A DNA stretch of 64,000 nt. Source: Eledone cirrhosa (taxonomy: Eukaryota). The notes beneath the pieces were generated by a model that was not told the origin of the DNA, did not search any database, and was given only the letters and a program-made list of their open reading frames with translations. The stretch covers positions 1 through 64,000 of the forward strand of contig CAXHJY010001022.1 of assembly GCA_964016885.1 (NCBI GenBank), given 5' to 3'. A program made the position numbers and the translations under genes. Positions 23,777 through 63,716 of the stretch are shown here, piece by piece (position 1 is the first letter of the stretch; each line of letters starts with the position of its first letter).

Positions 23777-24071
23777 GTATGTATATATGTATATATGTAA
23801 TAGAATGAAACGAAATTTCATTTCTCATTCTTAGTACGGCACTTACTTAAATGTAAGTATGTATGTATACGTACATACATATATGTATACAGACGTACAG
23901 TAGTCTGTATGTATATATATACATGCTACTGTACGTCTGTATACATATATGTATGTACGTATACATACTTACATTTAAGTAAGTGCCGTACTAAGAGTGA
24001 GAAATGAAATTTCGTTTCATTCTATTCCATTTATCGTCTTCGGTGCGCCTGGTCGACTGATCTCACTCGAT

Positions 24072-24120
24072 ATGCAAATTAGGCTGCTCAGCCGTTAATT
24101 TTCATAAGGAGAGTATATAC
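24072..24120 (+). promoter_or_regulatory. Octamer + PSE-like box + TATA-like (repeated per unit)
   Basis: ATGCAAAT 24072-24079; TAATTTTCATA 24096-24106; gtatatac ~24113-24120. Confidence 0.5.
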
Positions 24121-24153
24121 TTTCGGACGTTCAACCATCTGGCAGAAAGGTAT

Positions 24154-24196
24154 ACGGTGCTGACGATAGCTAATAAGCTTGAAACTAGTACATCGT
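24154..24196 (+). ncRNA. Type I hammerhead (S1 unit 1, intact)
   Basis: acggtg CTGACGA t agct aata agct t GAAA ctag TA catcgt. Confidence 0.88.
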
Positions 24197-25037
24197 TCCT
24201 GTGTCAGTGTTGAACAAAAAGGTGACGTGGTTGCCTAAATACTGTACGGCGTTATTCAGGCTGCTTGTTTGTTTACAAACGAACAAACCGAGCATTATAA
24301 TAAATGTTCGGTAGACTGATACGTGCATATATATATGTGTACCTGTATGTATATATATACATGCTACTGTACGTCTGTATACATATATGTATGTACGTAT
24401 ACATACATACTTACATTTAAGTAAGTGCCGTACTAAGAGTGAGAATTGAAATTTAGTTTTATTCTATTCCATTCATCGTTTTAGGTGCGCCTGGCCGACT
24501 GAACTCACTCGATATGCAAATTAGGCTGCTCAGCCGTTAATTGTCATAAGGAAAGTATATACTTTCGGACGTTCAACCATCTGGCAGAAAGGTATACGGT
24601 GCTGGCGATAGCTAATAAGCTTGAATATTGAACATCGTTCCTGTGTCAGTGTTGAACAAAAAGGTGACGTGGTTGACTAAACACTATACGGCGTAATTAA
24701 GGCTGTTTGTTTCTTTACAAACGAACAAACCGAGCATTATAATAAAAGTTTCGTAAACTGATACGTGCATATATATATGTGTGCTTGTATGTATATATAT
24801 ACATGCTACTGAACGTCTGTATACATATATGTATGTACGTATACATACATACTTACATTTAAGTAAGTGCCGTAATAAGAGTGAGAAATGAAATTTCGTT
24901 TCATTCTATTCCATTCATCGTTTTAGGTGCGCCTGGCCAGCTGAACTCACTCGATATGCAAATTAGGCTGCTGAGCCGTTAATTTTCATAAGGAAAGTAT
25001 ATACTTTCGGAAGTTCAACCATCTGGCAGAAATGTAT

Positions 25038-25080
25038 ACGGTGCTGACGATAGCTAATAAGCTTGAAACTAGTACATCGT
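25038..25080 (+). ncRNA. Type I hammerhead (S1 unit 3, intact)
   Basis: Same as unit 1; units 2, 4 and 5 (24596, 25480, 26122) carry core or stem mutations. Confidence 0.85.
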
Positions 25081-25631
25081 TCCTGTGTCAGTGTTGAACA
25101 AAAAGGTGACGTAGTTGCCTAAACACTGTACGGCGTAATTCAGGCTGTTTGTTTGTTTACAAACGAACAAACCGAGCAATATAATAAAATTTCGGTAAAC
25201 TGATACGTGCATATATATATGTGTGCCTGTATGTATATATATACATGCTACTGTACGTCTGTATACATATATGTATGTACGTATACATACATACTTACAT
25301 TTAAGTAAGTGCCGTACTAAGAGTGAGAAATGAAATTTCGTTTCATTCTATTCCATTTATCGTTTTCGGTGCGCCTGGCCGACTGAACTCACTCGATATA
25401 CAAATTAGGCTGCTCAGCCGTTAATTTTCATCAGGAAAGTATATACTTTCGGACGTTTAACCATCTGGCAGAAAGGTATAAGTTGCTGACGATAGCTAAT
25501 AAGCTTAAAACTAGTACATCGTTCCTGTGTCAGTGTTGAACAAAAAGGTGACGTGGTTGACTAAACACTGTACGGCGTAATTCAGGCTGTTTGTTTACAA
25601 ACGAACAAACCGAGCATTATAATAAATGTTC

Positions 25632-25820
25632 AAGGGCGGTGGATTGGCAGTATCGGTAGAGGGTCGGACGCCATGCTTTGACGCATAGAGTTACGGCCCT
25701 TGCCATTCTGAGTTCAAATCCCGCCGAGGTTAACTTTGCCTTTCATCCTTACGGGGTCGATAAAATAAAGTACCAGTAATACACTGGGTAATTTCTGGCC
25801 TTGTGCCAAACGTAGAAACA
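25632..25820 (+). mobile_element. Full-length tRNA-derived SINE with 16 bp TSD
   Basis: A box tggcagtatcgg; B box gagttcaaatcc; TSD attataataaatgttc at 25616-25631 and 25821-25836; central domain resembles the Meta-type/octopus SINE core (from memory). Confidence 0.92.
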
Positions 25821-26405
25821 ATTATAATAAATGTTCGGTAAACTGATACGTGCATATATATATGTGTGCCTGTATGTATATATATACATGCTACTGTACG
25901 TTTGTATACATATATGTATGTACGTATACATACATACTTACATTTAAGTAAGTGCCGTAATAAGAGTGAGAAATGAAATTTCGTTTCATTCTATTCCATT
26001 TATCGTTTCGGTGCATCTGGCCGACTGAACTCACTCGATATGCAAATTAGGCTGCTCAGCCGTTAATTTTCATAAGGAGAGTATATACTTTCGGACGTTC
26101 AACCATCTGGCAGAAAGGTATATGCTGCTGACGATAGCTAATAAGCTTGAAACTAATACATCGTTCCTGTGTCAGTGTTGAACAAAAAGGTGTCGTGGTT
26201 GCCTAAACACTGTACGGCGTAATTCAGGCTGTTTGTTTGTTTACAAACGAACAAACCGGGCATTATAATAAATGTTCGGTAAACTGATACGTGCATATAT
26301 ATATGTGTGCCTGTATGTATATATATACATGCTACTGTACATCTGTATACATATGTGTATTTACGTATACATACATACTTACATTTATGTATATATATTT
26401 ATGTA

Positions 26406-26597: not shown

Positions 26598-28846
26598 AAG
26601 ATTAAAATACTGGAGCGTGTTGGAGTTAAACACCCTCTTCGTATTATAGAAATGACAGTAAAAGGTATAGCTCAATGTAATTAAACAGAGCCGACGAATT
26701 ATGAAAGTAAAACAAAAGAGCCTTCAATACATCAAAAGTCTTTATTAGCCAACAATGTTACGTCCTATTAAGGACTCATCAGGGCAATTAAAACAACAAG
26801 AAGTATTATCGGCCAATACAAGCCGGAAACTCCGAAGAACATGGAGTGTACATACACTAAAGTATTGCAAGATTATGTGTAAAAGTATATAATAAAAAAA
26901 TATATAATAAAAATCACTAAGGAGGTGTATAACATTTAGAACCATATTACAAATATAGTCCAAAGCAAAAAAAAACTAGAGCTAAACAAAGGTGGATATA
27001 TAGAGCGGGACTTATATATAATACTATATAATATAATATAATATACTTGTAACAATATTAAAATTACAATAAAAATTAAAAGGTACAATATACATATGTA
27101 TATATGTACGCACACGTACGCACATATACACATACATCAATACACATATCCATCTTCAACATCACAAATTAAACCTTATTAAGAGTTTAAATATAAATAA
27201 GCATGATAGGAATAAAAATAATAATAATAATAATAATACGTATATCTAATATACATGAGGTAATAATGTGATATAATTATAAGTAGCACATATAATATAT
27301 AATATAATAAACTATACAATTATATACTATATAATATAATATAATAGATAATCACCGGTTAATTTACACAAACAATATAGATGTCACAATAATACTATAA
27401 AAATAATATAATAACATATATAATATATAATATATAATGGCATGCAAGTTAACATATCAATTCATATAGAGTTACAGAGTAGGTGAGAAAAAATATAAAT
27501 TGTACAATACCCAAAATTATGATGGTACAAAAATATAAACATCTTACATGATATATAAAGTTTAACATATCATAATGGTACTTATAATCAACGGTAAGTA
27601 ATAAGGATCGATAGTACAATAACAAATACAATATAAAATAATTAACATAATATAATATATAAATACTTATAATTACAAGGTTGGTAAACAGACATATATG
27701 TGGATGAGTGAGTAAGGGCCAGACAGTAAATAGAATGCACAGTAGTATTAATAAATAAATAAATAAATAAATAAATATAATCAACCGGAAATTAAAAAAA
27801 CAAAAACAAAAGTATATACTTAGGTCTCACATGCAGTTAAGTAAAAACTACGGAAACAACCCCGTTAAATGACTCGAAAACCCTATTTTATAAATTAATA
27901 TTAAAAATATTTAAAATATCTAATAAGGCAATACAATATTAGCATTGGTTTAAGTAATCAAAATTTATAGACGTTAATATTTCACTACAAATATATATAT
28001 AAAGGAATGAAATTTTCTACTATCATTTACATAACGATATCTAAAAAACTGACTTAAGCAGAATTATGGTAGGCTAATAGGGACAAAAAAAAGAAGTGTA
28101 TGGAGGATGCAAAGAAGCATAAAATCGTAGTCAATGTACTATATTAAATAATAGAAAGGAGCGTAAAAGAGGGGGGGGTTAAATATAATCATAATCTATT
28201 TGAAGGGGTTGACAATAACATTATGTGCGCATGGGGGAGGGAGGAGGGTGAAGGGGGGGGGGGGGGGGGGGAGGGCTATCCAAAGAAGAATCCAAATAAA
28301 ATAAAATAAAATGAAATGAAATAAAATAAAATAATGTAAAATATATAATCAGATATATACTCGTAAGGTGTTAATAGTGAAAATTTGATGCGTAAGAAGA
28401 TAGATATGGTATAGTAGCCAAAAGATTATGAGAGCTAGAATAAAGAGTTGTCAAAAACCAATGATAATAATGATGATAATGATGGTGGTAAACAAAAAAG
28501 AACCTAAACTAAAAAATAAGTAATGGAATATATCAGCTAATGGATACAATTTATACTACTAGAACCTATAGGTTTATAATAAAAGTAAGAATTAGAAATA
28601 GCGTGGGGGCAAGGAGAGAATATCTCAGACTGTCTATTAAGTAAGGATTCGCTAGAGAAAATTATAGAGTGTGTCTCGAGGATACAGAGATTACAAAATT
28701 TAGTATGTGTAGAAAGGTTATTAGAGCGTGCTACTAAACGCCAATTAAGGCTATATGGTATATTAGCCCCCTTAAGTTTAAGAATTCTACTTCAGTAGCA
28801 CACTATATCTGGGATATTAAGGGGGCTAATATACCATATAGCCTTA
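26598..28846 (-). mobile_element. 5'-truncated copy of PLE family E (EN C-terminus, 3'UTR, HHR at 26744-26788 with GAAA>GTAA) and short 5' inversion
   Basis: Reverse complement of ~48390-50490; 28795-28846 is an inverted piece. Confidence 0.9.
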
Positions 28847-43952: not shown

Positions 43953-43987
<35 letters not shown>

Positions 43988-44028
43988 GAAAATAAAACAA
44001 AGAAGCCTTCAATACATCAAAAGTCTTT

Positions 44029-44073
44029 ATTAGCCAACAATGTTTCGTCCTATTAAGGACTCATCAGGGCAAT
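44029..44073 (-). ncRNA. Type I hammerhead (family E, inverted copy)
   Basis: Reverse complement of 45706-45750. Confidence 0.85.
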
Positions 44074-45705
44074 CAAAACCACAAGAAGTACTATCGGCCA
44101 ATACAAGCCGAAAACTCCGAAGAATATGGAGTGTACATACACTAAAGTATTGGAAGATTATGGGTAAAAATATATAATAAAAATCACTAAGGAGGTGGAT
44201 AACATTTTGAACCATATTACAAATATAGTCCAAAGCAAAAAAACTAAAGGTGGTTATATAGAGCAGGAATTATAGTACTATATATAATACAATATAATAT
44301 AATATAATATACTTGTAACAATATTAAAATTAAAATTAAAAGGCACAATATACATATGTATATATGTACGCACAAGTACGCACGTATACATATACATCAA
44401 TACACATTTCCATCATTAACAGCACAAATTAAACCTTATTAAGAGTTTAAATATAAATAAGCATAATAGGAATAAAAATAATAATAATACATATATCTAA
44501 TATACAGTATAACATGAAGTAATGAAATGATTAAAAGTAAAACATATAATATATAATAAACTATATAATTATATAATATATAATATAATATAATAGATAA
44601 TCTCCGATTAATTTACACAAACAATATAGATGTCACAATAATACTATAATAATAATATAATAACATATAATATATAATGGCATGTAAGTTAACAAATCAA
44701 TTCATGTAGAGTTACAGAGTAGAGCAGAAAAAAATATATATTGTACAATACCCAAAATTATGATGGTACAAAAATATAAACATCTTACATGATATATAAA
44801 ATTTAACATATCATAATGGTACATAAAATCATCGGTAAGTAATAAGGATCAATAGTACAATAACAACTTCAATATGAAATAAAATAATGAACATAATATA
44901 ATATATAATTACTTATAATTAAAAGGTTGGTAAACAGACACATATGTGAATGAGTGAATAAGGGCCAGACAGAAAATACTATGCACAGTAGTATTAATAA
45001 ATAAATAAATAAAATCAAACGGAAATTAAAAAACAAAAACAAAAGTATTTACTTAGGTCTCACATGCAGTTAAGTAAAAACTTAGGAAAAAACCCAGATA
45101 AATGACTAGAAAACCCTATTTGATAAATTAATATTGAAAATATTTAATATACCTAATAAGGCAATACAATATTAGCTATGGTTTAAGTAATAAAAATTCC
45201 TAAACATTAATATTTCACTATAAATATATATATAAAGGAATGAAATATTCTACTATCATTTACATGTTATACTGTATATTAGATATACGTATTATTATTA
45301 TTTTTATTCCTATTATGCTTATTTATATTTAAACTCTTAATAAGGTTTAATTTGTGCTGTTAATGATGGAAATGTGTATTGATGTATATGTATATGTGCG
45401 TACGTGTGCGTACATATATACATATGTATATTGTGCCTTTTAATTTTAATTTTAATATTGTTACAAATATATTATATTATATTATATTGTATTATATATA
45501 GTACTATAATTCCCGCTCTATATAACCACCTTTAGTTTTTTTGCTTTGGACTATATTTGTAATATGGTTCAAAATGTTATCCACCTCCTTAGTGATTTTT
45601 ATTATATATTTTTACCCATAATCTTCCAATACTTTAGTGTGTGTACACTCCATATTCTTCGGAGTTTTCGGCTTGTATTGGCTGATAGTACTTCTTGTGG
45701 TTTTG

Positions 45706-45750
45706 ATTGCCCTGATGAGTCCTTAATAGGACGAAACATTGTTGGCTAAT
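45706..45750 (+). ncRNA. Minimal type I hammerhead (family E)
   Basis: attgcc CTGATGA gtcc ttaata ggac GAAA c att g TT ggc taat. Confidence 0.9.
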
Positions 45751-45967
45751 AAAGACTTTTGATATATTGAAGGCTTCTTTGTTTTATTTTCATAATTCTT
45801 CGGCTCTGTTTAATTACATTGAGCTATACCTTTTACTGTCATTTCTATAATACGAAGAGGGTGTTTAACTCCAACACGCTCCAGTATTTTAATCCTTGTC
45901 ACTGCTCCCGATTGGTTGAGCTTCCGCCTATATACTGGTGTTTTTGCCTTTATATATATCTGACAGT

Positions 45968-48629
45968 ATGCTAACAAAGAGTTACCTGCCTTTATCTCTG
46001 AAGAATATTCCCACCCCCTCTAAGAATACTTACGAAAAACCATTGATTGCTAGTGGTAACTCCTTCGTAAAAAGGATTAGATGGCGTGCTTTCCACTATG
46101 ATATTAATAGGAATAGGAAGGACCCCAGGAATAGAACAAATTTTAATAACTATGGCTTCAAAACTTATATGAGCCCACCACATAATGTTCTATTAGATAA
46201 TTGTGAAAGTGACTTACTCTCTCTTGTCAAAAATATTAAGTATAGGCCAAATAATAGACATAGAAATTATAATAAATTTGATAACTTCCAGTCTAGACTT
46301 AAAAATATTGTTAAGGGTTTTAGTGCGAATAAGTCTATTATTGTCCCGGCGGATAAGACTAAGAATCTATACTCTATGGATTACAGTGCTTACCGTGACT
46401 TTCTTTATAAGGAGCTGCATAGAAATTATAAAAAGACTACGCTAGATAATTTGAACCATATCAATTGTGAGGGTCTTAAAATAGTCTCGGACCTCGGGCT
46501 TGATAAGTACACCCAGCCATATTACCCTAGAGAACCGAGATTCACTATTAAGGATCATAAGGTAGACTTCATTAGTAACCCCTCTGTTAGACTCATCTGT
46601 CCTTCTAAGTCCGATATAGCCATAATCAGTAAAAAAATCCTTGACCTTATTATACCAGATGTTAGGGATAAAGTTAATTTTAACCTATGGGGGAACACTA
46701 AGGAAGTTATACATTGGTTCTCTGGGATTAATAAACTTGAATCTAATAAGTTTATCCAGTTCGATATTGATGTCTACTACACATCGATTTCACCCATCCT
46801 CCTCAATAAAGCCTTAATGTTGGCCATGACAGTGTCCAGCCTTACACGATCACAGGTAGATATTATACTAGCAGCCCGTAGAACTATTATTAATTTTGAG
46901 GACACATCTTGGACCCGTAAAAACACGCCCAACAATTTCTACGTTACAATGGGTTCGAGTGATTCGGGCCAGGTAACTGATCTTGTTGGGTTGTTCCTCC
47001 TAAATGAACTATATGTTACCTTTCCGCACTTTAATGGCGGACTATATCGTGATGATGCATTGTTCGTAATTAACTCTAGCACCAACAATGTAGAACATAA
47101 TAAGAAGAAGCTTTATAAGTTTATTTAAAAGCTATAACCTTTCGATCACGATAGATAGAAACGATAGAGCGGTCAACTTTTTAGATGTGACTTTGGACTT
47201 GGTCACTAATAGTTTTAAACCCTTCTATAAGCCTAATGAAATACTTTCTTATGTTAGTCCGAATTCTAACCACCCCAAATCTATCATAAGCTCTATAATT
47301 AAGAGTGTATCTAATAGGATTTCCACACTCTCTAAGGACGTAGGAATATTTAATGAACATGCGGAGTACTATAATAATTCCCTAGCTAATTCCGGTTACT
47401 CTAGTAAAATACATAATAATAATAGTAACCTTAGAAATTCTCCGCTTACTTATAATAATAATAACATAATATCCCATAACATGGCCATGAATGGGAGTAG
47501 GAAGCATAATAATCGTAGAAATTACATAGGTGTATCTGAACCCATCCATAAGTTAACCCACCGGACTCGTAATAGGGAATCAAGTCGAACCCTCTGAGCG
47601 CTCACTCATTGGTGATGATTTTGCTAGATCTAATTCTAATAATGTTGTTTCTACTGATCCTATTATTGGCCCTAATCCTTTTGATAGGATTCCAGACAGC
47701 AGCAGATCTACTAGAGGTAGAAACATTAAGAGATATAATGGAATTTTGGCTGATTCTAATAATGCGGTTTTAACTAATCCTTGTAATAACCCTATCTTAA
47801 TAATGGGATATTAGATAATGGTAGAGTCGGAAAGGATAAAAATAGAAGGAGACTAAATACTTATTTTAACCCGCCATATAATCAGGAAGTATTAACTAAT
47901 ATCCCTAGGTCTTTCTTTTCTATCTTAGAGAAACATTTCACCCCTTCTCATAAATACCATAGTATTTTTAATAAAAATGTTATTAAACTTTCATTCTCTA
48001 CCACCCCTAATATTAGTTCTCATTTAGCTAGCACTAACAATAGGAAAATTAGGGATGGATACTCCTCTCTACATACTACTAGTCTGAACAGATCTGGAAA
48101 TGCCTTACCACCAGAGCAGACCTTATCTAATAGTAATCCTACGTTTAATGCATCACTACTTCAGCCAATCAATAGCACCCGGAAGTGTAACTGTAGAGTG
48201 AGTGCTAACTGCCCTTTAAACGGTAACTGCCTCTCTAAGAACATCGTCTATGCTTGCGTAGTTATAACTAATTCCTCTAATAGAACTTATATAGGCTCTA
48301 CATCTAACACTAGGTTTAATTCTCATATCTCTAATTTCAAACATGTTAAGTTTAAGAATTCTATTTCTTTAGCACCCTATATCTGGGATCTTAAGGGGGC
48401 TAATATACCATATAGCCTTAATTGGCGTTTAGATGCACGCTCTAATAACCTTTCTACACATACTAAATTGTGTAATCTCTGTATCCTCGAGACACACTCT
48501 ATAATGTTCTCTAGTGAATCCTTACTTAATAGAAAGTCTGAGATATTCTCTTCTTGCCCCCACGCTATTTCTAATTCTTACTTATATTATAAAACTAAAG
48601 GTTCTAGTAGTGTAAATTGTATCCATTAG
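45968..48629 (+). pseudogene. PLE RT-GIY-YIG pol with several frameshifts
   Basis: SLKNIPTP, ADKT, KDHK, FIQFDI, GLYRDDAL, NFLDVTLDL, SNHP, YFNPPY, CNCR...CPLNGNC, TYIGST, CNLC, LNRKSE, CPH. Confidence 0.95.
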
Positions 48630-50299
48630 CTGATATATTCCATTACTTATTTTTTTTAGTTTAGGTTCTTTTTGTTTACCACCATTATTATCATCATTAT
48701 TATCATTGGTTTTTGACAACTTTTTATTCTAGCTCTCATAATCTTTTGGCTACTATACCATATCTATCTTCTTACACATTAAATTTTCACTATTAACACC
48801 TTATGAGTATATATCTGATTATATATTTGATATTATTTTATTTTATTTCATTTTATTTTATTTTATTTGGATTCTTCTTTGGGTAACCCCTCTCCTCCCC
48901 CCCCCCATGCACACATAAACTTATTGCCAACCCCTTCAGATATATTATGATTATATTTAATCTCCCCCTCTTTTATGCTCCTTTCTATTATATAATACAG
49001 TATATTGATTATGATTTTAAGCTCCTTTGTATCCTGGATACATTTCTTTTTTTCTGTCCCTATTAGCCTACCATAATTCTGCTTAAGTCAGTTTTTTAGA
49101 TATCGTTATGTAAATGATAGTAGAATATTTCATTCCTTTATATATATATTTATAGTGAAATATTAATGTTTAGGAATTTTTATTACTTAAACCATAGCTA
49201 ATATTGTATTGCCTTATTAGGTATATTAAATATTTTCAATATTAATTTATCAAATAGGGTTTTCTAGTCATTTATCTGGGGTTTTTCCTAAGTTTTTACT
49301 TAACTGCATGTGAGACCTAAGTAAATACTTTTGTTTTTGTTTTTTAATTTCCGGTTGATTTTATTTATTTATTTATTAATACTACTGTGCATAGTATTTT
49401 CTGTCTGGCCCTTATTCACTCATTCACATATGTGTCTGTTTACCAACCTTGTAATTATAAGTAATTATATATTATATTATGTTCATTATTTTATTTTATA
49501 TTGAAGTTGTTATTGTACTATTGATCCTTATTACTTACCGATGATTTTATGTACCATTATGATATGTTAAATTTTATATATCATGTAAGATGTTTATATT
49601 TTTGTACCATCATAATTTTGGGTATTGTACAATATATATTTTTTTCTGCTCTACTCTGTAACTCTACATGAATTGATTTGTTAACTTACATGCCATTATA
49701 TATTATATGTTATTATATTATTATTATAGTATTATTGTGACATCTATATTGTTTGTGTAAATTAATCGGAGATTATCTATTATATTATATTATATATTAT
49801 ATAATTATATAGTTTATTATATATTATATGTTTTACTTTTAATCATTTCATTACTTCATGTTATACTGTATATTAGATATATGTATTATTATTATTTTTA
49901 TTCCTATTATGCTTATTTATATTTAAACTCTTAATAAGGTTTAATTTGTGCTGGTAATGATGGAAATGTGTATTGATGTATATGTATACGTGCGTACTTG
50001 TGCGTACATATATACATATGTATATTGTGCCTTTTAATTTTAATTTTAATATTGTTACAAGTATATTATATTATATTATATTGTATTATATATAGTACTA
50101 TAATTCCTGCTCTATATAACCACCTTTAGTTTTTTTGCTTTGGACTATATTTGTAATATGGTTCAAAATGTTATCCACCTCCTTAGTGATTTTTATTATA
50201 TATTTTTACCCATAATCTTCCAATACTTTAGTGTATGTACACTCCATATTCTTCGGAGTTTTCGGCTTGTATTGGCCGATAGTACTTCTTGTGGTTTTG

Positions 50300-50344
50300 A
50301 TTGCCCTGATGAGTCCTTAATAGGACGAAACATTGTTGGCTAAT
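50300..50344 (+). ncRNA. Minimal type I hammerhead (family E, 3' copy)
   Basis: Identical to 45706-45750. Confidence 0.9.
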
Positions 50345-50487
50345 AAAGACTTTTGATGTATTGAAGGCTTCTTTGTTTTATTTTCATAATTCTTCGGCTC
50401 TGTTTAATTACATTGAGCTATACCTTTTACTGTCATTTTTATAAAACGAAGAGGGTGTTTAACTCCAACACGCTCCAGTATTTTAAT

Positions 50488-50526
<39 letters not shown>

Positions 50527-56570: not shown

Positions 56571-57537
56571 TTTCTCCCCATCAACGAACTCATTATTAAT
56601 ACATATTAACTCTTTATTCGCATATATTATCAATTCCTTCAATATACAAACTTTAACTCCACATTATTTTTCTCAAATCCTTCTACACACAAACCTTAAT
56701 AATTTTTCTCTTCGTTAATTTTGAAATTGCCACAATATCTTATCAACATACATTTCTTTTTTTTGACGTTAGAATATTCATCCACAATTATTATTTTTTC
56801 TCTCTATCTTCATACATAAATTCCCTTCGTTAATTTTCAAATTCCTTTAATTTATACATTATCTTCCAACGGTTCCCAACCTCTCTATGTAAAACTATAT
56901 ATCTTTTTCTCAGTTATAAAAACTATCTCTTTCCCTCTATCACCCATCTCTCCCTCTCCACCTTCACTCTCATCTCCTCCCCCTTTTTTCATCCTTTCCA
57001 CCCCCCCTCCCTAAATAAAATATTTTTTCCTCGCACATATCCTCCCTTCGTTAATTTTCAAAATTTTTTTTTTTAAATTTTTAATTGATACATTATCTTC
57101 CAACGGTTTTCAACCTCTCTATGTAAAACAATATATCTCCTCTCAGTTATAAAAACTATCTCTTTCTCTCTATCACCCATCTCTCCCTCTCATCTCCTTC
57201 CCTTTTTCATCCTTTCCACCCCCCCTCTCTAAATAAAATATTTTTCACAATATCACACATCAATCTAAAACCACTTTTCATATGTTGATTTAAAACTGCA
57301 CTATCCACAAGTGTTTTTTAGCCTTCATATCATGTTCTCTTGTTTTATCTGATGAAAACACAAATATTATTGCATGATGATGTTTGTTTTTGAAATGCGC
57401 ATAATAAAATACATGGAACTCCTTTAACCATCTTTTGAACTTATATTATGTATACTCCAGTCCTACAAACTGTAGAGTGCTTCTTATCCGATATCTGCAT
57501 TGCTTTATTGTACTACAATAAAACTCACCTCCTACAT
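56571..57537 (+). mobile_element. PLE family D pLTR with internal ~220 bp duplication
   Basis: ~56823-57025 repeats at ~57044-57246; 3' part matches 1095-1421. Confidence 0.75.
57343..57409 (+). ncRNA. Type I hammerhead (family D)
   Basis: ttttat CTGATGA aaaca...tgttttt GAAA tgcgca TA ataaaa. Confidence 0.82.
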
Positions 57538-60338
<2,801 letters not shown>

Positions 60339-60567
60339 TTAAACAATTAAGTTAAAAATGTACATCTACATATGCATACTGAAATACTAGTGTGTATATG
60401 AATACAAACACGTATACATATGTAGGTGTACCAAGTCTTTCACTGGTCGCTTTACAGTGAGCGGCCCAGCTATTCTGTATGTAAACACACAGACAAACCG
60501 GTTTTTAGAGTCACACTGGTTTTTCGGGGGAACACCTTCCCCCTATTCTCCAGAAAGCCAGACAAGG

Positions 60568-60612
60568 AATATTGACCTAGTTTCGTTGTTGTTACAACTC
60601 ATCAGCAATGTT
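60568..60612 (-). ncRNA. Type I hammerhead (S2, inverted)
   Basis: Reverse complement of the S2 HHR. Confidence 0.75.
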
Positions 60613-60691
60613 TACCTATCTACCGGCCTTTCTGGAGAATTGTAAAAGCACATATCGTTATATGCTTTTTCTATGAAAATTAGTAGTGGGC

Positions 60692-60747
<56 letters not shown>

Positions 60748-61035
60748 AAATAACGAAACGAAATTAAATTTCGTTTCGTTTGTAACTCACTTTTGTATGA
60801 CTGACGCTTAAACAATTAAGTTAAAAATGTACATCTACATATGCATACTGAAATACTAGTGTGTATATGAATACACACACGTATACATATGTAGGTGTAC
60901 CAAGTCTTTCACTGGTCGCTTTACAGTGAGCGGCCCAGCTATTCTGTATGTAAACACACGGACAAACCGGTTTTTAGAGTCACACTGGTTTTTCGGGGGA
61001 CACCTTCCCCCTATTCACCAGAAAGCCAGACAAGG

Positions 61036-61080
61036 AATATTGAACTAGTTTCGTTGTTGTTACAACTCATCAGCAATATT
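61036..61080 (-). ncRNA. Type I hammerhead (S2, inverted)
   Basis: Reverse complement of the S2 HHR. Confidence 0.85.
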
Positions 61081-61403
61081 TACCTATCTACCGGCCTTTC
61101 TGGAGAATTGTAAAAGCACATATCGTTATATGCTTTTTCTATGAAAATTAGTAGTGGGCAGACTAATTTGCATAGAGTGTGAGTACGCACCGGTTCAGCG
61201 GAGACGATAAAAAACAAATAACATAATAATGTGTGTATTCATATACACACTAGTATTTCAGTATGCATATGTAGATGTACATTTTTAACTTAATTGTTTA
61301 AGCGTCAGTCATACAAAAGTGAGTTACAAACGAAACGAAATTTAATTTCGTTTCGTTATTTGTTTTTTATCGTCTCCGCTGAACCGGTGCGTACTCACAC
61401 TCT

Positions 61404-61450
61404 ATGCAAATTAGTCTGCCCACTACTAATTTTCATAGAAAAAGCATATA
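61404..61450 (+). promoter_or_regulatory. Octamer + PSE-like box (repeated per S2 unit)
   Basis: ATGCAAAT 61404-61411; TAATTTTCATA 61427-61437; aaagcatata. Confidence 0.5.
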
Positions 61451-61496
61451 ACGATATGTACTTTTACAATTCTCCAGAAAGGCCGGTAGATAGGTA

Positions 61497-61541
61497 AATA
61501 TTGCTGATGAGTTGTAACAACAACGAAACTAGGTCAATATT
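61497..61541 (+). ncRNA. Type I hammerhead (S2, ctaggtc variant)
   Basis: aatattg CTGATGA gttgt aaca acaac GAAA ctaggt caatatt. Confidence 0.8.
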
Positions 61542-61965
61542 CCTTGTCTGGCTTTCTGGAGAATAGGGGGAAGGTGTTCCCCCGAAAAACCAGTGTGACT
61601 CTAAAAACCGGTTTGTCTGTGTGTTTACATACAGAATAGCTGGGCCGCTCACTGTAAAGCGACCAGTGAAAGACTTGGTACACCTACATATGTATACGTG
61701 TGTGTATTCATATACACACTAGTATTTCAGTATGCATATGTAGATGTACATTTTTAACTTAATTGTTTAAGCGTCAGTCATACAAAAGTGAGTTACAAAC
61801 GAAACGAAATTTAATTTCGTTTCGTTATTTGTTTTTTATCGTCTCCGCTGAACCGGTGCGTACTCACATTCTATGCAAATTAGTCTGCCCACTACTAATT
61901 TTCATAGAAAAAGCATATAACGATGTGTGCTTTTACAATTCTCCAGAAAGGCCGGTAGATAGGTA

Positions 61966-62010
61966 AATATTGCTGATGAGTTGTAACAACAACGAAACTA
62001 GTTCAATATT
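61966..62010 (+). ncRNA. Type I hammerhead (S2)
   Basis: aatattg CTGATGA gttgt aaca acaac GAAA ctag TT caatatt. Confidence 0.88.
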
Positions 62011-62434
62011 CCTTGTCTGGCTTTCTGGTGAATAGGGGGAAGGTGTTCCCCCGAAAAACCAGTGTGACTCTAAAAACCGGTTTGTCTGTGTGTTTACATA
62101 CAGAATAGCTGGGCCGCTCACTGTAAAGCGACCAGTGAAAGACTTGGTACACCTACATATGTATACGTGTGTGTATTCATATACACACTAGTATTTCAGT
62201 ATGCATATGTAGATGTACATTTTTAACTTAATTGTTTAAGCGTCAGTCATACAAAAGTGAGTTACAAACGAAACGAAATTTAATTTCGTTTCGTTATTTG
62301 TTTTTTATCGTCTCCGCTGAACCGGTGCATACTCACATTCTATTCAAATTAGTCTGCCCACTACTAATTTTCATAGAAAAAGCATATAACGATATGTGCT
62401 TTTACAATTCTCCAGAAAGGCCGGTAGATAGGTA

Positions 62435-62479
62435 AATATTGCTGATGAGTTGTAACAACAACGAAACTAGTTCAATATT
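62435..62479 (+). ncRNA. Type I hammerhead (S2)
   Basis: Same motif as 61966-62010. Confidence 0.88.
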
Positions 62480-62903
62480 CCTTGTCTGGCTTTCTGGAGA
62501 ATAGGGCTAAGGTGTTCCCCCGAAAAAACAGTGTGACTCTAAAAACCGGTTTGTCTGTGTGTTTACATACAGAATAGCTGGGCCGCTCACTGTAAAGCGA
62601 CCAGTGAAAGACTTGGTACACCTACATATGTATACGTGTGTGTATTCATATACACACTAGTATTTCAGTATGCATATGTAGATGTACATTTTTAACTTAA
62701 TTGTTTAAGCGTCAGTCATACAAAAGTGAGTTACAAACGAAACGAAATTTAATTTCGTTTCGTTATTTGTTTTTTATCGTCTCCGCTGAACCGGTGCGTA
62801 CTCACACTCTATGCAAATTAGTCTGCCCACTACTAATTTTCATAGAAAAAGCATATAACGATATGTGCTTTTACAATTCTCCAGAAAGGCCGGTAGATAG
62901 GTA

Positions 62904-62948
62904 AATATTGCTGATGAGTTGTAACAACAACGAAACTAGTTCAATATT
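62904..62948 (+). ncRNA. Type I hammerhead (S2)
   Basis: Same motif as 61966-62010. Confidence 0.88.
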
Positions 62949-63372
62949 CCTTGTCTGGCTTTCTGGAGAATAGGGGGAAGGTGTTCCCCCGAAAAACCAA
63001 TGTGACTCTAAAAACCGGTTTGTCTGTGTGTTTACATACAGAATAGCTGGGCCGCTCACTGTAAAGCGACCAGTGAAAGACTTGGTACACCTACATATGT
63101 ATACGTGTGTGTATTCATATACACACTAGTATTTCAGTATGCATATGTAGATGTACATTTTTAACTTAATTGTTTAAGCGTCAGTCATACAAAAGTGAGT
63201 TACAAACGAAACGAAATTTAATTTCGTTTCGTTATTTGTTTTTTATCGTCTCCGCTGAACCGGTGCGTACTCACACTCTATGCAAATTAGTCTGCCCACT
63301 ACTGATTTTCATAGAAAAAGCATATAACGATATGTGCTTTTACAATTCTCCAGAAAGGCCGGTAGATAGGTA

Positions 63373-63417
63373 AATATTGCTGATGAGTTGTAACAACAAC
63401 GAAACTAGTTCAATATT
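63373..63417 (+). ncRNA. Type I hammerhead (S2)
   Basis: Same motif as 61966-62010. Confidence 0.88.
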
Positions 63418-63634
63418 CCTTGTCTGGCTTTCTGGAGAATAGGGGGAAGGTGTTCCCCCGAAAAACCAGTGTGACTCTAAAAACCGGTTTGTCTGTGTGT
63501 TTACATACAGAATAGCTGGGCCGCTCACTGTAAAGCGACCAGTGAAAGACTTGGTACACCTACATATGTATACGTGTGTGTATTCATATACACACTAGTA
63601 TTTCAGTATGCATATGTAGATGTACATTTTTAAC

Positions 63635-63689
<55 letters not shown>

Positions 63690-63716
63690 ATTATATATAA
63701 ATATATATATATATAT

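Follow-up and report, generated by a model that had tools for sequence, protein, structure and literature searches.

A hammerhead repeat of Eledone cirrhosa with a host-type promoter box and Penelope-like insertions: a candidate self-transcribing retrozyme

How a repeat that encodes no protein could be transcribed, copied, and inserted at many sites is the question raised by a tandem array in the window, the 64,000-nucleotide stretch analyzed here (positions 1 to 64,000 of contig CAXHJY010001022.1, assembly GCA_964016885.1, from Eledone cirrhosa). The array is built of 469-bp units, named S2, that carry a hammerhead ribozyme. A preliminary description took S2 for a retrozyme with its own small nuclear RNA (snRNA)-type promoter that is mobilized by Naiads, a clade of Penelope-like elements (PLEs). 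Its classification stood: with a type I hammerhead per unit, no coding capacity, and a highly self-paired monomer, S2 is, as judged from sequence, a non-LTR retrozyme (LTR, long terminal repeat), a known class of which every testable feature was found. In the metazoan non-LTR retrozymes of coral, mussel, and axolotl, RNA and cleavage have been demonstrated, and PLE helpers and rolling-circle copying have been proposed (Cervera and de la Pena 2020, PMC7229834). The retrozyme class, its rings, and its link to PLEs are already published. We propose that S2 is a protein-free repeat that likely transcribes itself, is predicted to cut itself to 469-nt monomers, likely forms rings, and is likely inserted at (TA)n targets through the reverse transcriptase (RT) and GIY-YIG nuclease of a Neptune- or Hydra-clade PLE, a reading to which we give a probability of about 0.6.

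The S2 array and its hammerhead

Tandem Repeats Finder, run on the window, reported a 469-bp period with 5.1 copies and 98% matches at 61230 to 63640, and BLAST placed minus-strand S2 copies ahead of it at 60339 to 61222. Seven hammerhead cores (CTGATGA...GAAA) were located, five on the plus strand (61504, 61973, 62442, 62911, and 63380) and two on the minus strand (61073 and 60605). Together, these results bore out the seven hammerhead-bearing units described earlier. No stop-free frame of 150 amino acids occurs within 60356 to 63640, and the units are therefore non-coding. The parts of the array, and of one example unit, are as follows; Pol III is RNA polymerase III, and E1 and E2 are two fixed 3' ends described below.

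57536 to 60338: (TA)n target, left flank
60339 to 60695, minus strand: extra 5'-truncated S2 unit (unit positions 114-469+6), without the box; shares the private variant 300G of the array
60696 to 60741: (TA)23 separating the short arm from the extra unit
60742 to 61222, minus strand: short inverted arm, unit positions 60 to 469 plus a 72-nt tail; its 3' end is fixed site E2
61223 to 61229: 7-nt filler where the two 5'-truncated arms meet head to head
61230 to 63640, plus strand: long arm, a 66-nt partial unit and five full 469-bp units; its 3' end is fixed site E1 (unit position 469), followed by (TA)n
63641 to 63716: (TA)n target, right flank
62703 to 62774, plus strand: 72-nt E1-E2 interval with a perfect 13-bp hairpin (62735 to 62763) and a terminal T6 run; candidate RT handle
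62810 to 62821, plus strand: TATGCAAATTAG box of the example unit, the same as the host type-3 Pol III element; other starts at 61403, 61872, 62341 (mutated), 63279, and 61174 (minus strand)
62833 to 62844, plus strand: CTAATTTTCATA, which repeats the box in inverted form but for one mismatch and pairs with it in the RNA fold
62854 to 62859, plus strand: TATA-like TATAAC, 44 nt from the box start (47 to 49 in host genes)
62877 to 62970, plus strand: extended stem closed by ttctccagaaag/ctttctggagaa
62883 to 62890, plus strand: predicted start region (TATA+30 to box+80), placed by host-gene spacing
62904 to 62948, plus strand: type I hammerhead, with stem I at 62904-62910/62942-62948, CUGAUGA at 62911-62917, stem II at 62918-62931, GAAA at 62932-62935, stem III ACUAGU, and a predicted cut after 62941 (GUU)
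63157 to 63161, plus strand: first T5 run past the predicted start, a possible Pol III stop about 275 nt on; broken in the 467-bp subfamily

The 5' inverted block in (TA)n lies, as previously stated, on the minus strand between TA flanks, but it consists of three pieces: the short arm, (TA)23, and a 5'-truncated unit. In this region (60339 to 60741), 46 bp of TA separate the extra unit from the short arm, standing in place of unit positions 76 to 113; the extra unit could stem from the same event or from a local hop. Several motifs had been ascribed to every unit and hold for most of them. The word ATGCAAAT is exact in five of the seven, but the copy at 62342 reads ATTCAAAT and the unit at 60339 to 60695 is truncated within the box. 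TAATTTTCATA follows at the stated 23 nt, start to start, but is exact in only six units. The palindromic stem III is intact (ACTAGT-T) in five units, the other two reading ACTAGG-T, and the closing pair of the extended stem is exact on both sides in five of seven.

The S2 hammerhead comprises stem I (AAUAUUG/CAAUAUU), CUGAUGA, a 5-bp stem II, GAAA, and ACUAGU, with a predicted cut after GUU. It matched the Rfam family HH9 with an E value of 2.4e-8 at 38.6 bits, below the 52-bit gathering score; no Rfam match at gathering level was obtained for the S2 array. Among 12 copies of S2 and its sister family S1, both sides had changed in 7 of 16 pairs, mostly through one S1/S2 family split rather than twelve separate events; this covariation score was reached by none of 500 shuffles, and pairing dropped to 30 to 46% in slid controls. 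The type I hammerhead is thus borne out by its cores, its covariation, and the HH9 match. Genome-wide, the 31-nt hammerhead has 5,197 exact copies, and the reversed-pattern control has none.

Folding predictions bear on how the ribozyme might act. The predicted monomer fold, hairpins throughout, has an energy of −157 kcal/mol (z, −9.9), and none of 100 shuffles was equally stable. The predicted monomer circle reaches −160 kcal/mol, with a stem III pairing probability of 0. In the hammerhead dimer (−31.6 kcal/mol, versus 2 x −14.1 for separate copies), stem III forms between copies, with a gain of 3.4 kcal/mol. Axolotl retrozymes with a comparable stem III cleave far better as dimers than as monomers (PMC7229834), and in vitro cleavage was reported for just one of nine frog retrozyme dimers (10.64898/2026.07.22.740005), a caution for S2. 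The modeled folds predict that S2 cleaves itself, with dimers favored over lone monomers.

The promoter box and the host snRNA genes

Host snRNA genes were collected by Rfam family, and a type-3 promoter profile was made from three U6 genes, U6atac, MRP, and two selenocysteine tRNA (tRNA-Sec) genes. Nine box-less matches (five of six U6atac, two U6 with replaced upstream DNA, and two weak tRNA-Sec) were left out as likely pseudogenes. All seven promoters carry TATG(C/G)(A/T)AAT(T/G)AG at −77 to −80 and G-TATA(T/A)A at −30/−31. The S2 word TATGCAAATTAG is exactly this consensus, scoring 19.6 bits, as high as none of 1,000 shuffles; the type-3 box was not found in eight U1/U2 promoters, where scores were 7.5 or less. 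The proposed snRNA-class promoter signature therefore survives in altered form: the box is of host type, but it is the Pol III type-3 box TATGCAAATTAG (7 of 7) and not a U1/U2-type octamer with a proximal sequence element (PSE).

A second word, TAATTTTCATA, had been compared to PSEA, the Drosophila form of the PSE, whose opening was given as TAATTCYCAA. This comparison failed: TAATT(T/C)(T/C)CA was absent from the 500 nt upstream of 20 U1, U2, and U6 loci, and the best matches to TAATTTTCATA in 15 promoters had two to four mismatches at scattered places. TAATTTTCATA is instead, but for one change, the box in reverse complement, and it varies in an S1 subfamily.

The comparison with S1 indicates how the box is conserved. 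Two S1 insertions lie in the window:

23786 to 26385, plus strand: S1, a sister family of S2 (442 bp; 66% identity), sharing the box, a TATA-like word, a hammerhead, and the two-armed layout
about 9100 to 9930: second S1 insertion

The two families share 280 of 426 aligned columns, and TATGCAAATTAG, at 12 nt, is their longest identical run; in S2, it and the TATA-like word precede the ribozyme core by 101 and 57 nt. The word CAGAAAGG, common to S1 and S2 at box+72, was considered as a conserved start and rejected, the two words not being homologous in the alignment. A box-then-hammerhead pattern that skips the majority S1 and S2 copies had 565 genomic matches and none in the control. Two further box-plus-hammerhead families with the same two-armed layout, S3 and S4 (loci L087:1360-1730, L115, L117, and L118), came from these matches, and the type-3 consensus is exact in S1 through S4, with 0 or 1 of 1,000 shuffles as high. 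A single match at L116 was rejected as a fifth family since it had no repeat anatomy. Ahead of the hammerheads of coding PLEs the box was not found, with four or more mismatches in 8 of 8.

Several observations speak against a working promoter in S2. The spacing from box to TATA is 43 in S1, 44 in S2, and 46 in S4, versus 47 to 49 in all seven host genes. The TATAAC of S2 is weaker than the host G-TATA(T/A)A, and S3 has no clear TATA-like word; S1 has one of host type. Host Pol III genes end at T5 to T10 (tRNA-Sec at T4), so Pol III should mostly halt at the S2 T5 run before the unit end; past the predicted start, the T-runs are T5 about 275 nt on, then T5-6, T4, and T4. Selection against T-runs in the predicted transcribed parts was sought and rejected (1 seen versus 2.7 expected; P = 0.19). 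S3 and S4 were picked by a search for the box, among the 100 matches listed of 565. Finally, since the modeled RNA has the box paired to its inverted copy, structure may explain part of the conservation of the box.

The strongest alternative, though in our judgment an unlikely one, is that S2 is an ordinary retrozyme with no working promoter, its RNA arising by read-through from neighboring genes and its box and inverted copy being an RNA hairpin or a relic of a captured U6-type promoter. Metazoan retrozymes seem promoterless in the published model as given in PMC7761336, the S2 unit consists wholly of hairpins, its TATA spacing is 3 to 6 bp short, and T5 runs intervene. However, the forward box is identical at 12 of 12 positions between families only 66% alike, whereas the strand that pairs with it is variable (an S1 subfamily has TAATATGCATA there) and the hammerhead stems show compensatory changes; S4 has the box without a clear partner strand. 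Moreover, the box is the word that marks all seven host type-3 promoters, and a TATA-like word comes after it. Type-3 promoters are able to load Pol II (PMC11340601), and such loading could yield full-length S2 RNA.

Further observations concern the promoters and the families that carry the box. Host snRNA promoters fall into two classes, both with TATA: U1/U2, with AATTA (−91), TCAGT (−57), and TATA (−33), and type 3, with TATGCAAATTAG (−78) and TATA (−30). The loci are L031-L033 and L063-L068 (105 nt upstream) and L051-L053, L073, and L079-L081; the U1/U2 elements were read by eye from eight promoters. By eye, S2 has two TCAGT words, with no TATA 24 nt after either. The RNase P RNA gene (L188:1381-1500; G000:C24:12936134) has TCAGT and TATA words of the U1/U2 type and no type-3 box, which suggests that this RNA is transcribed in the Pol II snRNA style in this host. 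U6atac pseudogenes (L075:1380-1500) directly follow (TA)n runs, as though retroposition had used the same targets.

S1 has a host-type G-TATATA, a hammerhead with a cut after GUA, and a U-U at the base of stem II; one S1 array is broken by a short interspersed element-like piece at about 25630 to 25820. S4 carries a 3-bp stem III that is stable, and upstream of its box lie several copies resembling the octamer. Within S2, a 467-bp subfamily (L092, L104, L114, L119, and L120) differs by about 27 diagnostic changes, none of them in the box, TATA, or ribozyme core; one breaks the first T5. L119 holds 12 identical full units.

The S2 unit is covered by contigs from four sequencing runs of unrecorded kind. 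At 61882, a UAG within the box hairpin, an A-to-G excess was seen (G in 168 of 212 depth in run X1, present in X5, and 1.6% in X2). This excess would fit RNA editing or a variant locus; with the run kinds unrecorded, it is not used as evidence.

Insertion anatomy and the copied template

S2 is a young repeat, with 798 candidate loci in the genome; 40 were scored, at 98 to 99% identity, and are spread over many chromosomes. Insertions were surveyed at 41 non-redundant loci, chosen as best matches to the window unit and so biased toward young copies. All consist of arms of whole and 5'-truncated units, with nothing but the unit in the 41 loci, and both orientations occur at 26 of the 33 main-subfamily loci. 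Two sites account for the 3' ends: E1 (unit position 469, plus 0 to 6) and E2 (70 to 76 nt further). One E1 end and one E2 end were found at 27 of the 28 loci with two true ends (24 by script, with 3 and the exception added by eye; at the remaining 13 loci, at most one end was scored). The sole exception, L092, has two E1 ends and counts against a strict rule. TA-type sequence lies beyond 59 of 73 end calls, a total that includes 9 duplicates or false internal calls, and an insertion outside a TA run (L135) has an 11-bp target duplication.

The idea that S2 inserts like a PLE into (TA)n, with an inverted arm, is supported by this survey, which also answers whether other copies share the TA association and inversion of the window array: most do. 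PLEs of the Hydra, Neptune, and Naiad clades likewise form partial tandems in (TA)n targets, with a 5'-truncated copy in inverted orientation and a tail on one side (Craig et al. 2021, PMC8557442). The same two-armed anatomy was seen in coding Neptune-type and Hydra elements of this genome.

Two other determinants of element ends were considered and rejected. The 5' break points do not cluster (Rayleigh P of about 0.06): of 52, 2 fall at the start and 3 at the cut site, where 2.3 were expected. Pol III terminators do not set the ends, since S1 ends at matching places without T-runs.

Private variants bear on the template from which the arms were copied. The set comprised 226 calls in 154 pieces at 33 loci, 8 loci of other subfamilies having been left out beforehand. 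Variants were shared within a locus in 102 of 671 chances, between loci in 57 of 22,502, and across opposite arms in 50 of 221; in 200 label shuffles, at most 10 of the 102 shared variants were recovered. At eight loci, a variant unique among the 33 is present in every covering piece of both arms, the window array being one of them (300G in 7 of 7 pieces). No insertion or deletion was found at the cut site in 93 distinct contexts, which argues against sloppy jumping between linear monomers. The rolling-circle-like copying from one monomer that had been proposed is backed by these variants: their presence in both arms points to a monomer template, likely circular, and to two primings on one ring.

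Two points weigh against a monomer template. In the window array, variants 238G and 265T are common to only two of seven units, and fixed variants could alternatively come from a homogeneous source array or from conversion between arms. A related explanation, that both arms were copied without a ring, from linear multimers transcribed off homogeneous donor arrays, is in our view improbable. A multimer too would give exact junctions and random 5' breaks, and arrays of 12 to 13 identical units exist (L119). However, a locus-specific variant is fixed in both arms at 8 of 33 loci, for which the donors would need a one-unit bottleneck, and rings have been shown for three other animal retrozymes (PMC7229834).

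Candidate helpers, relatives, and a working mechanism

If S2 is mobilized by a PLE, which clade supplies the enzyme? Two coding elements lie in the window:

17090 to 21400, minus strand: Hydra-clade PLE A, with RT at 18335-20101, GIY-YIG at 17746-18345 in another frame, and a partial tandem copy 98.9% alike; of a candidate helper clade
43984 to 50490, plus strand: Hydra-clade element B, with broken frames, a canonical hammerhead at 50306, an inverted arm 99.6% alike, and two 3' ends in (TA)n, separated by about 100 nt

In these elements, RT is followed by a C-terminal GIY-YIG, and RWK/RWR, ADKT, and the CxCx5C linkers CNCHLPERC, CNCRVSANC, and CNCRKQSEC are present. RWK, DKT, the CxCx5C linker, a C-terminal GIY-YIG, a hammerhead, and (TA)n mark the Hydra clade, of which a family is listed from an octopus (PMC8557442). 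By motifs, with no tree, the window elements are assigned to that clade. The hammerhead of element A (17200-17260 and 20330-20430, minus strand) has an unusually long branched stem II of ~90 nt, and the 3' part of element B is present in three related copies (26598-28500, 43984-45245, and 48629-50490), two of them inverted, 87 to 99% alike.

A genome-wide survey gave 10,596 GIY-YIG candidates, with clades named by motif. A stop directly follows the nuclease in 30 of the 30 best matches, and RT precedes the nuclease in loci with long open reading frames (ORFs). The 19 long-frame loci are mostly Neptune-type (CX4CxxC linker and DKG; frames of 938 and 1096 amino acids), with a single Penelope-type family and a single Hydra fragment besides. 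Both kinds of element, Neptune-type and Hydra, are young, two-armed, and in (TA)n. Young Neptune-type families include L168, L170, L171, and L183, with frames up to 1096 amino acids; in L183, a palindromic insertion of 3.3 kb, the arms match at 99.7% and about 50 nt separate the two ends.

These observations bear on the Naiad clade, which the preliminary description had named as the mobilizer and which now seems a poor candidate. Naiads form the same tandem, inverted, and tailed structures and favor (TA)n, and octopus Naiad families are listed; however, Naiads are described with an N-terminal GIY-YIG, a DKA motif, and no canonical hammerhead, and cephalopod Naiads are termed remnants (PMC8557442). 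The window elements bear Hydra marks instead, with a C-terminal GIY-YIG, ADKT, and the canonical hammerhead at 50306; the stop after the nuclease in 30 of 30 top matches and the RT-first order of the long-ORF loci also argue against Naiads. No Naiad protein was seen in the GIY-YIG survey, for which the Pfam model may miss Naiad nucleases. Similarity of S2 to the 3' ends of 49 PLE loci or of the window PLEs was not found beyond TA-rich noise, which counts against a PLE helper, and so no helper family could be named by sequence likeness; these loci are a small part of the 10,596 candidates. We place the Neptune and Hydra clades level, each a possible helper at somewhat under even odds, with Naiads well behind and any other source very unlikely.

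A satellite spread at the DNA level, by unequal crossing-over, DNA circles, or Helitron-type rolling circles with the ribozyme as passenger, is largely refuted as the means of dispersal. The ends at fixed E1/E2 sites, the 5'-truncated arms joined head to head, the (TA)n targets, and the target duplication are those of PLE insertions, and the ribozyme covaries. Spread at the DNA level stands just for the later growth of some arrays, such as the long one (L099/L100) with a higher-order duplication, which we propose grew by unequal exchange.

S2 resembles the metazoan non-LTR retrozymes of PMC7229834 in its non-coding tandems, a type I hammerhead per unit, thousands of copies, and strongly self-paired RNA, and its weak palindromic stem III resembles that of axolotl HHR_Amex1. 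Its 469-nt unit compares with 170 to 400 nt in those retrozymes, and S2 is known here from sequence alone. Metazoan retrozymes seem, in the account of PMC7761336, to be without a promoter or a motif pointing to a helper, whereas S2 has a host type-3 box and a PLE two-end signature. In a vertebrate survey (Li, Clavereau, and Pollet 2026, 10.64898/2026.07.22.740005), retrozymes with units of 51 to 972 bp are likewise non-autonomous PLE partners; there, the link to PLEs is homology to the pseudo-LTR (pLTR), and arrays reflect local amplification, whereas for S2 no pLTR homologue was found and arrays were apparently laid down at insertion. Compared with the PLEs of PMC8557442, S2 has no ORF, a tail of 72 nt rather than 30 to 40, and no detected 3' similarity to a coding family; Chlamys non-autonomous forms such as MRC1 are head-to-tail, like S2. 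Newt satellite 2 (Coats, Zhang, and Epstein 1994) is, like S2, a hammerhead repeat with an internal snRNA-type promoter, reported to use Pol II (PMC2220036, PMC6765202), whereas the S2 box marks host Pol III type-3 genes and not U1/U2.

As for newness, the S2 family, or a type-3 promoter in any retrozyme, was not found described in the literature searched, a scope outside which subscription papers, Repbase, and Dfam fell; nor were the two-end rule and the one-unit evidence. The earlier suggestion of novelty thus holds for the family, but mussel retrozymes, promoter-bearing hammerhead repeats of newt and schistosome, and the PLE origin had been published.

The schistosome repeats Sm-alpha and Sj-alpha have a tRNA-type internal promoter. 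As in S2, the promoter (Pol III) is followed by a hammerhead (Ferbeyre 1998; PMC6765202, PMC2220036) and lands at the 3' end of the cut monomer, hence the need for tandems. They are described there as SINE-like, whereas S2 has an upstream U6-type box and two-armed PLE-type insertions.

The following mechanism is proposed for S2. The box would probably recruit the host type-3 snRNA machinery, and RNA would start about 25 nt ahead of the ribozyme core. With its promoter upstream of the start, the element would retain it only in transcripts that read into the next unit, and tandem copies would be needed. A full-length run must cross T5, T5-6, T4, and T4 and would thus call for leaky Pol III or for Pol II on the same promoter, the former being modestly favored. 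As stem III has only one to two pairs with the palindrome, multimers would be cut after GUU as a double hammerhead, and the lone monomer is predicted to cut poorly and to survive. By analogy with the coral, mussel, and axolotl retrozymes, a host ligase would close the monomer. Both nicked (TA)n strands would then, with good probability, prime on one ring, at E1 and, 72 nt away, at E2, on either side of the 13-bp hairpin. Each complementary DNA would circle the ring for 0.4 to 13 turns, the two would be joined head to head, and some arrays would enlarge afterwards through unequal exchange.

A bolder and more tentative statement, to which we give somewhat less than an even chance, is that at least four retrozyme families captured a host U6-type promoter and carry it in an RNA ring, on which a Penelope enzyme primes twice, 72 nt apart, around a hairpin. 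If so, the RNA ring would be the sole form that lets an upstream promoter survive reverse transcription, and thousands of insertions would record the origin of the unexplained inverted arms and tails of Penelope elements. Under this reading, short Pol III transcripts that end at the first T5 might also act in trans, providing the other half of the double hammerhead. Animal retrozymes are highly expressed and yet said to be promoterless, and the host-type box of S2 predicts both a start site and a silencing mutation. For PLE integration, whose inverted arms and one-sided tails are unexplained, S2 offers a strict rule of two ends, a hairpin that is a candidate handle, and genomic indications of copying from a single unit. 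Both questions become testable on a 469-nt substrate, and the host type-3 promoter consensus would be useful for guide-RNA expression in this animal.

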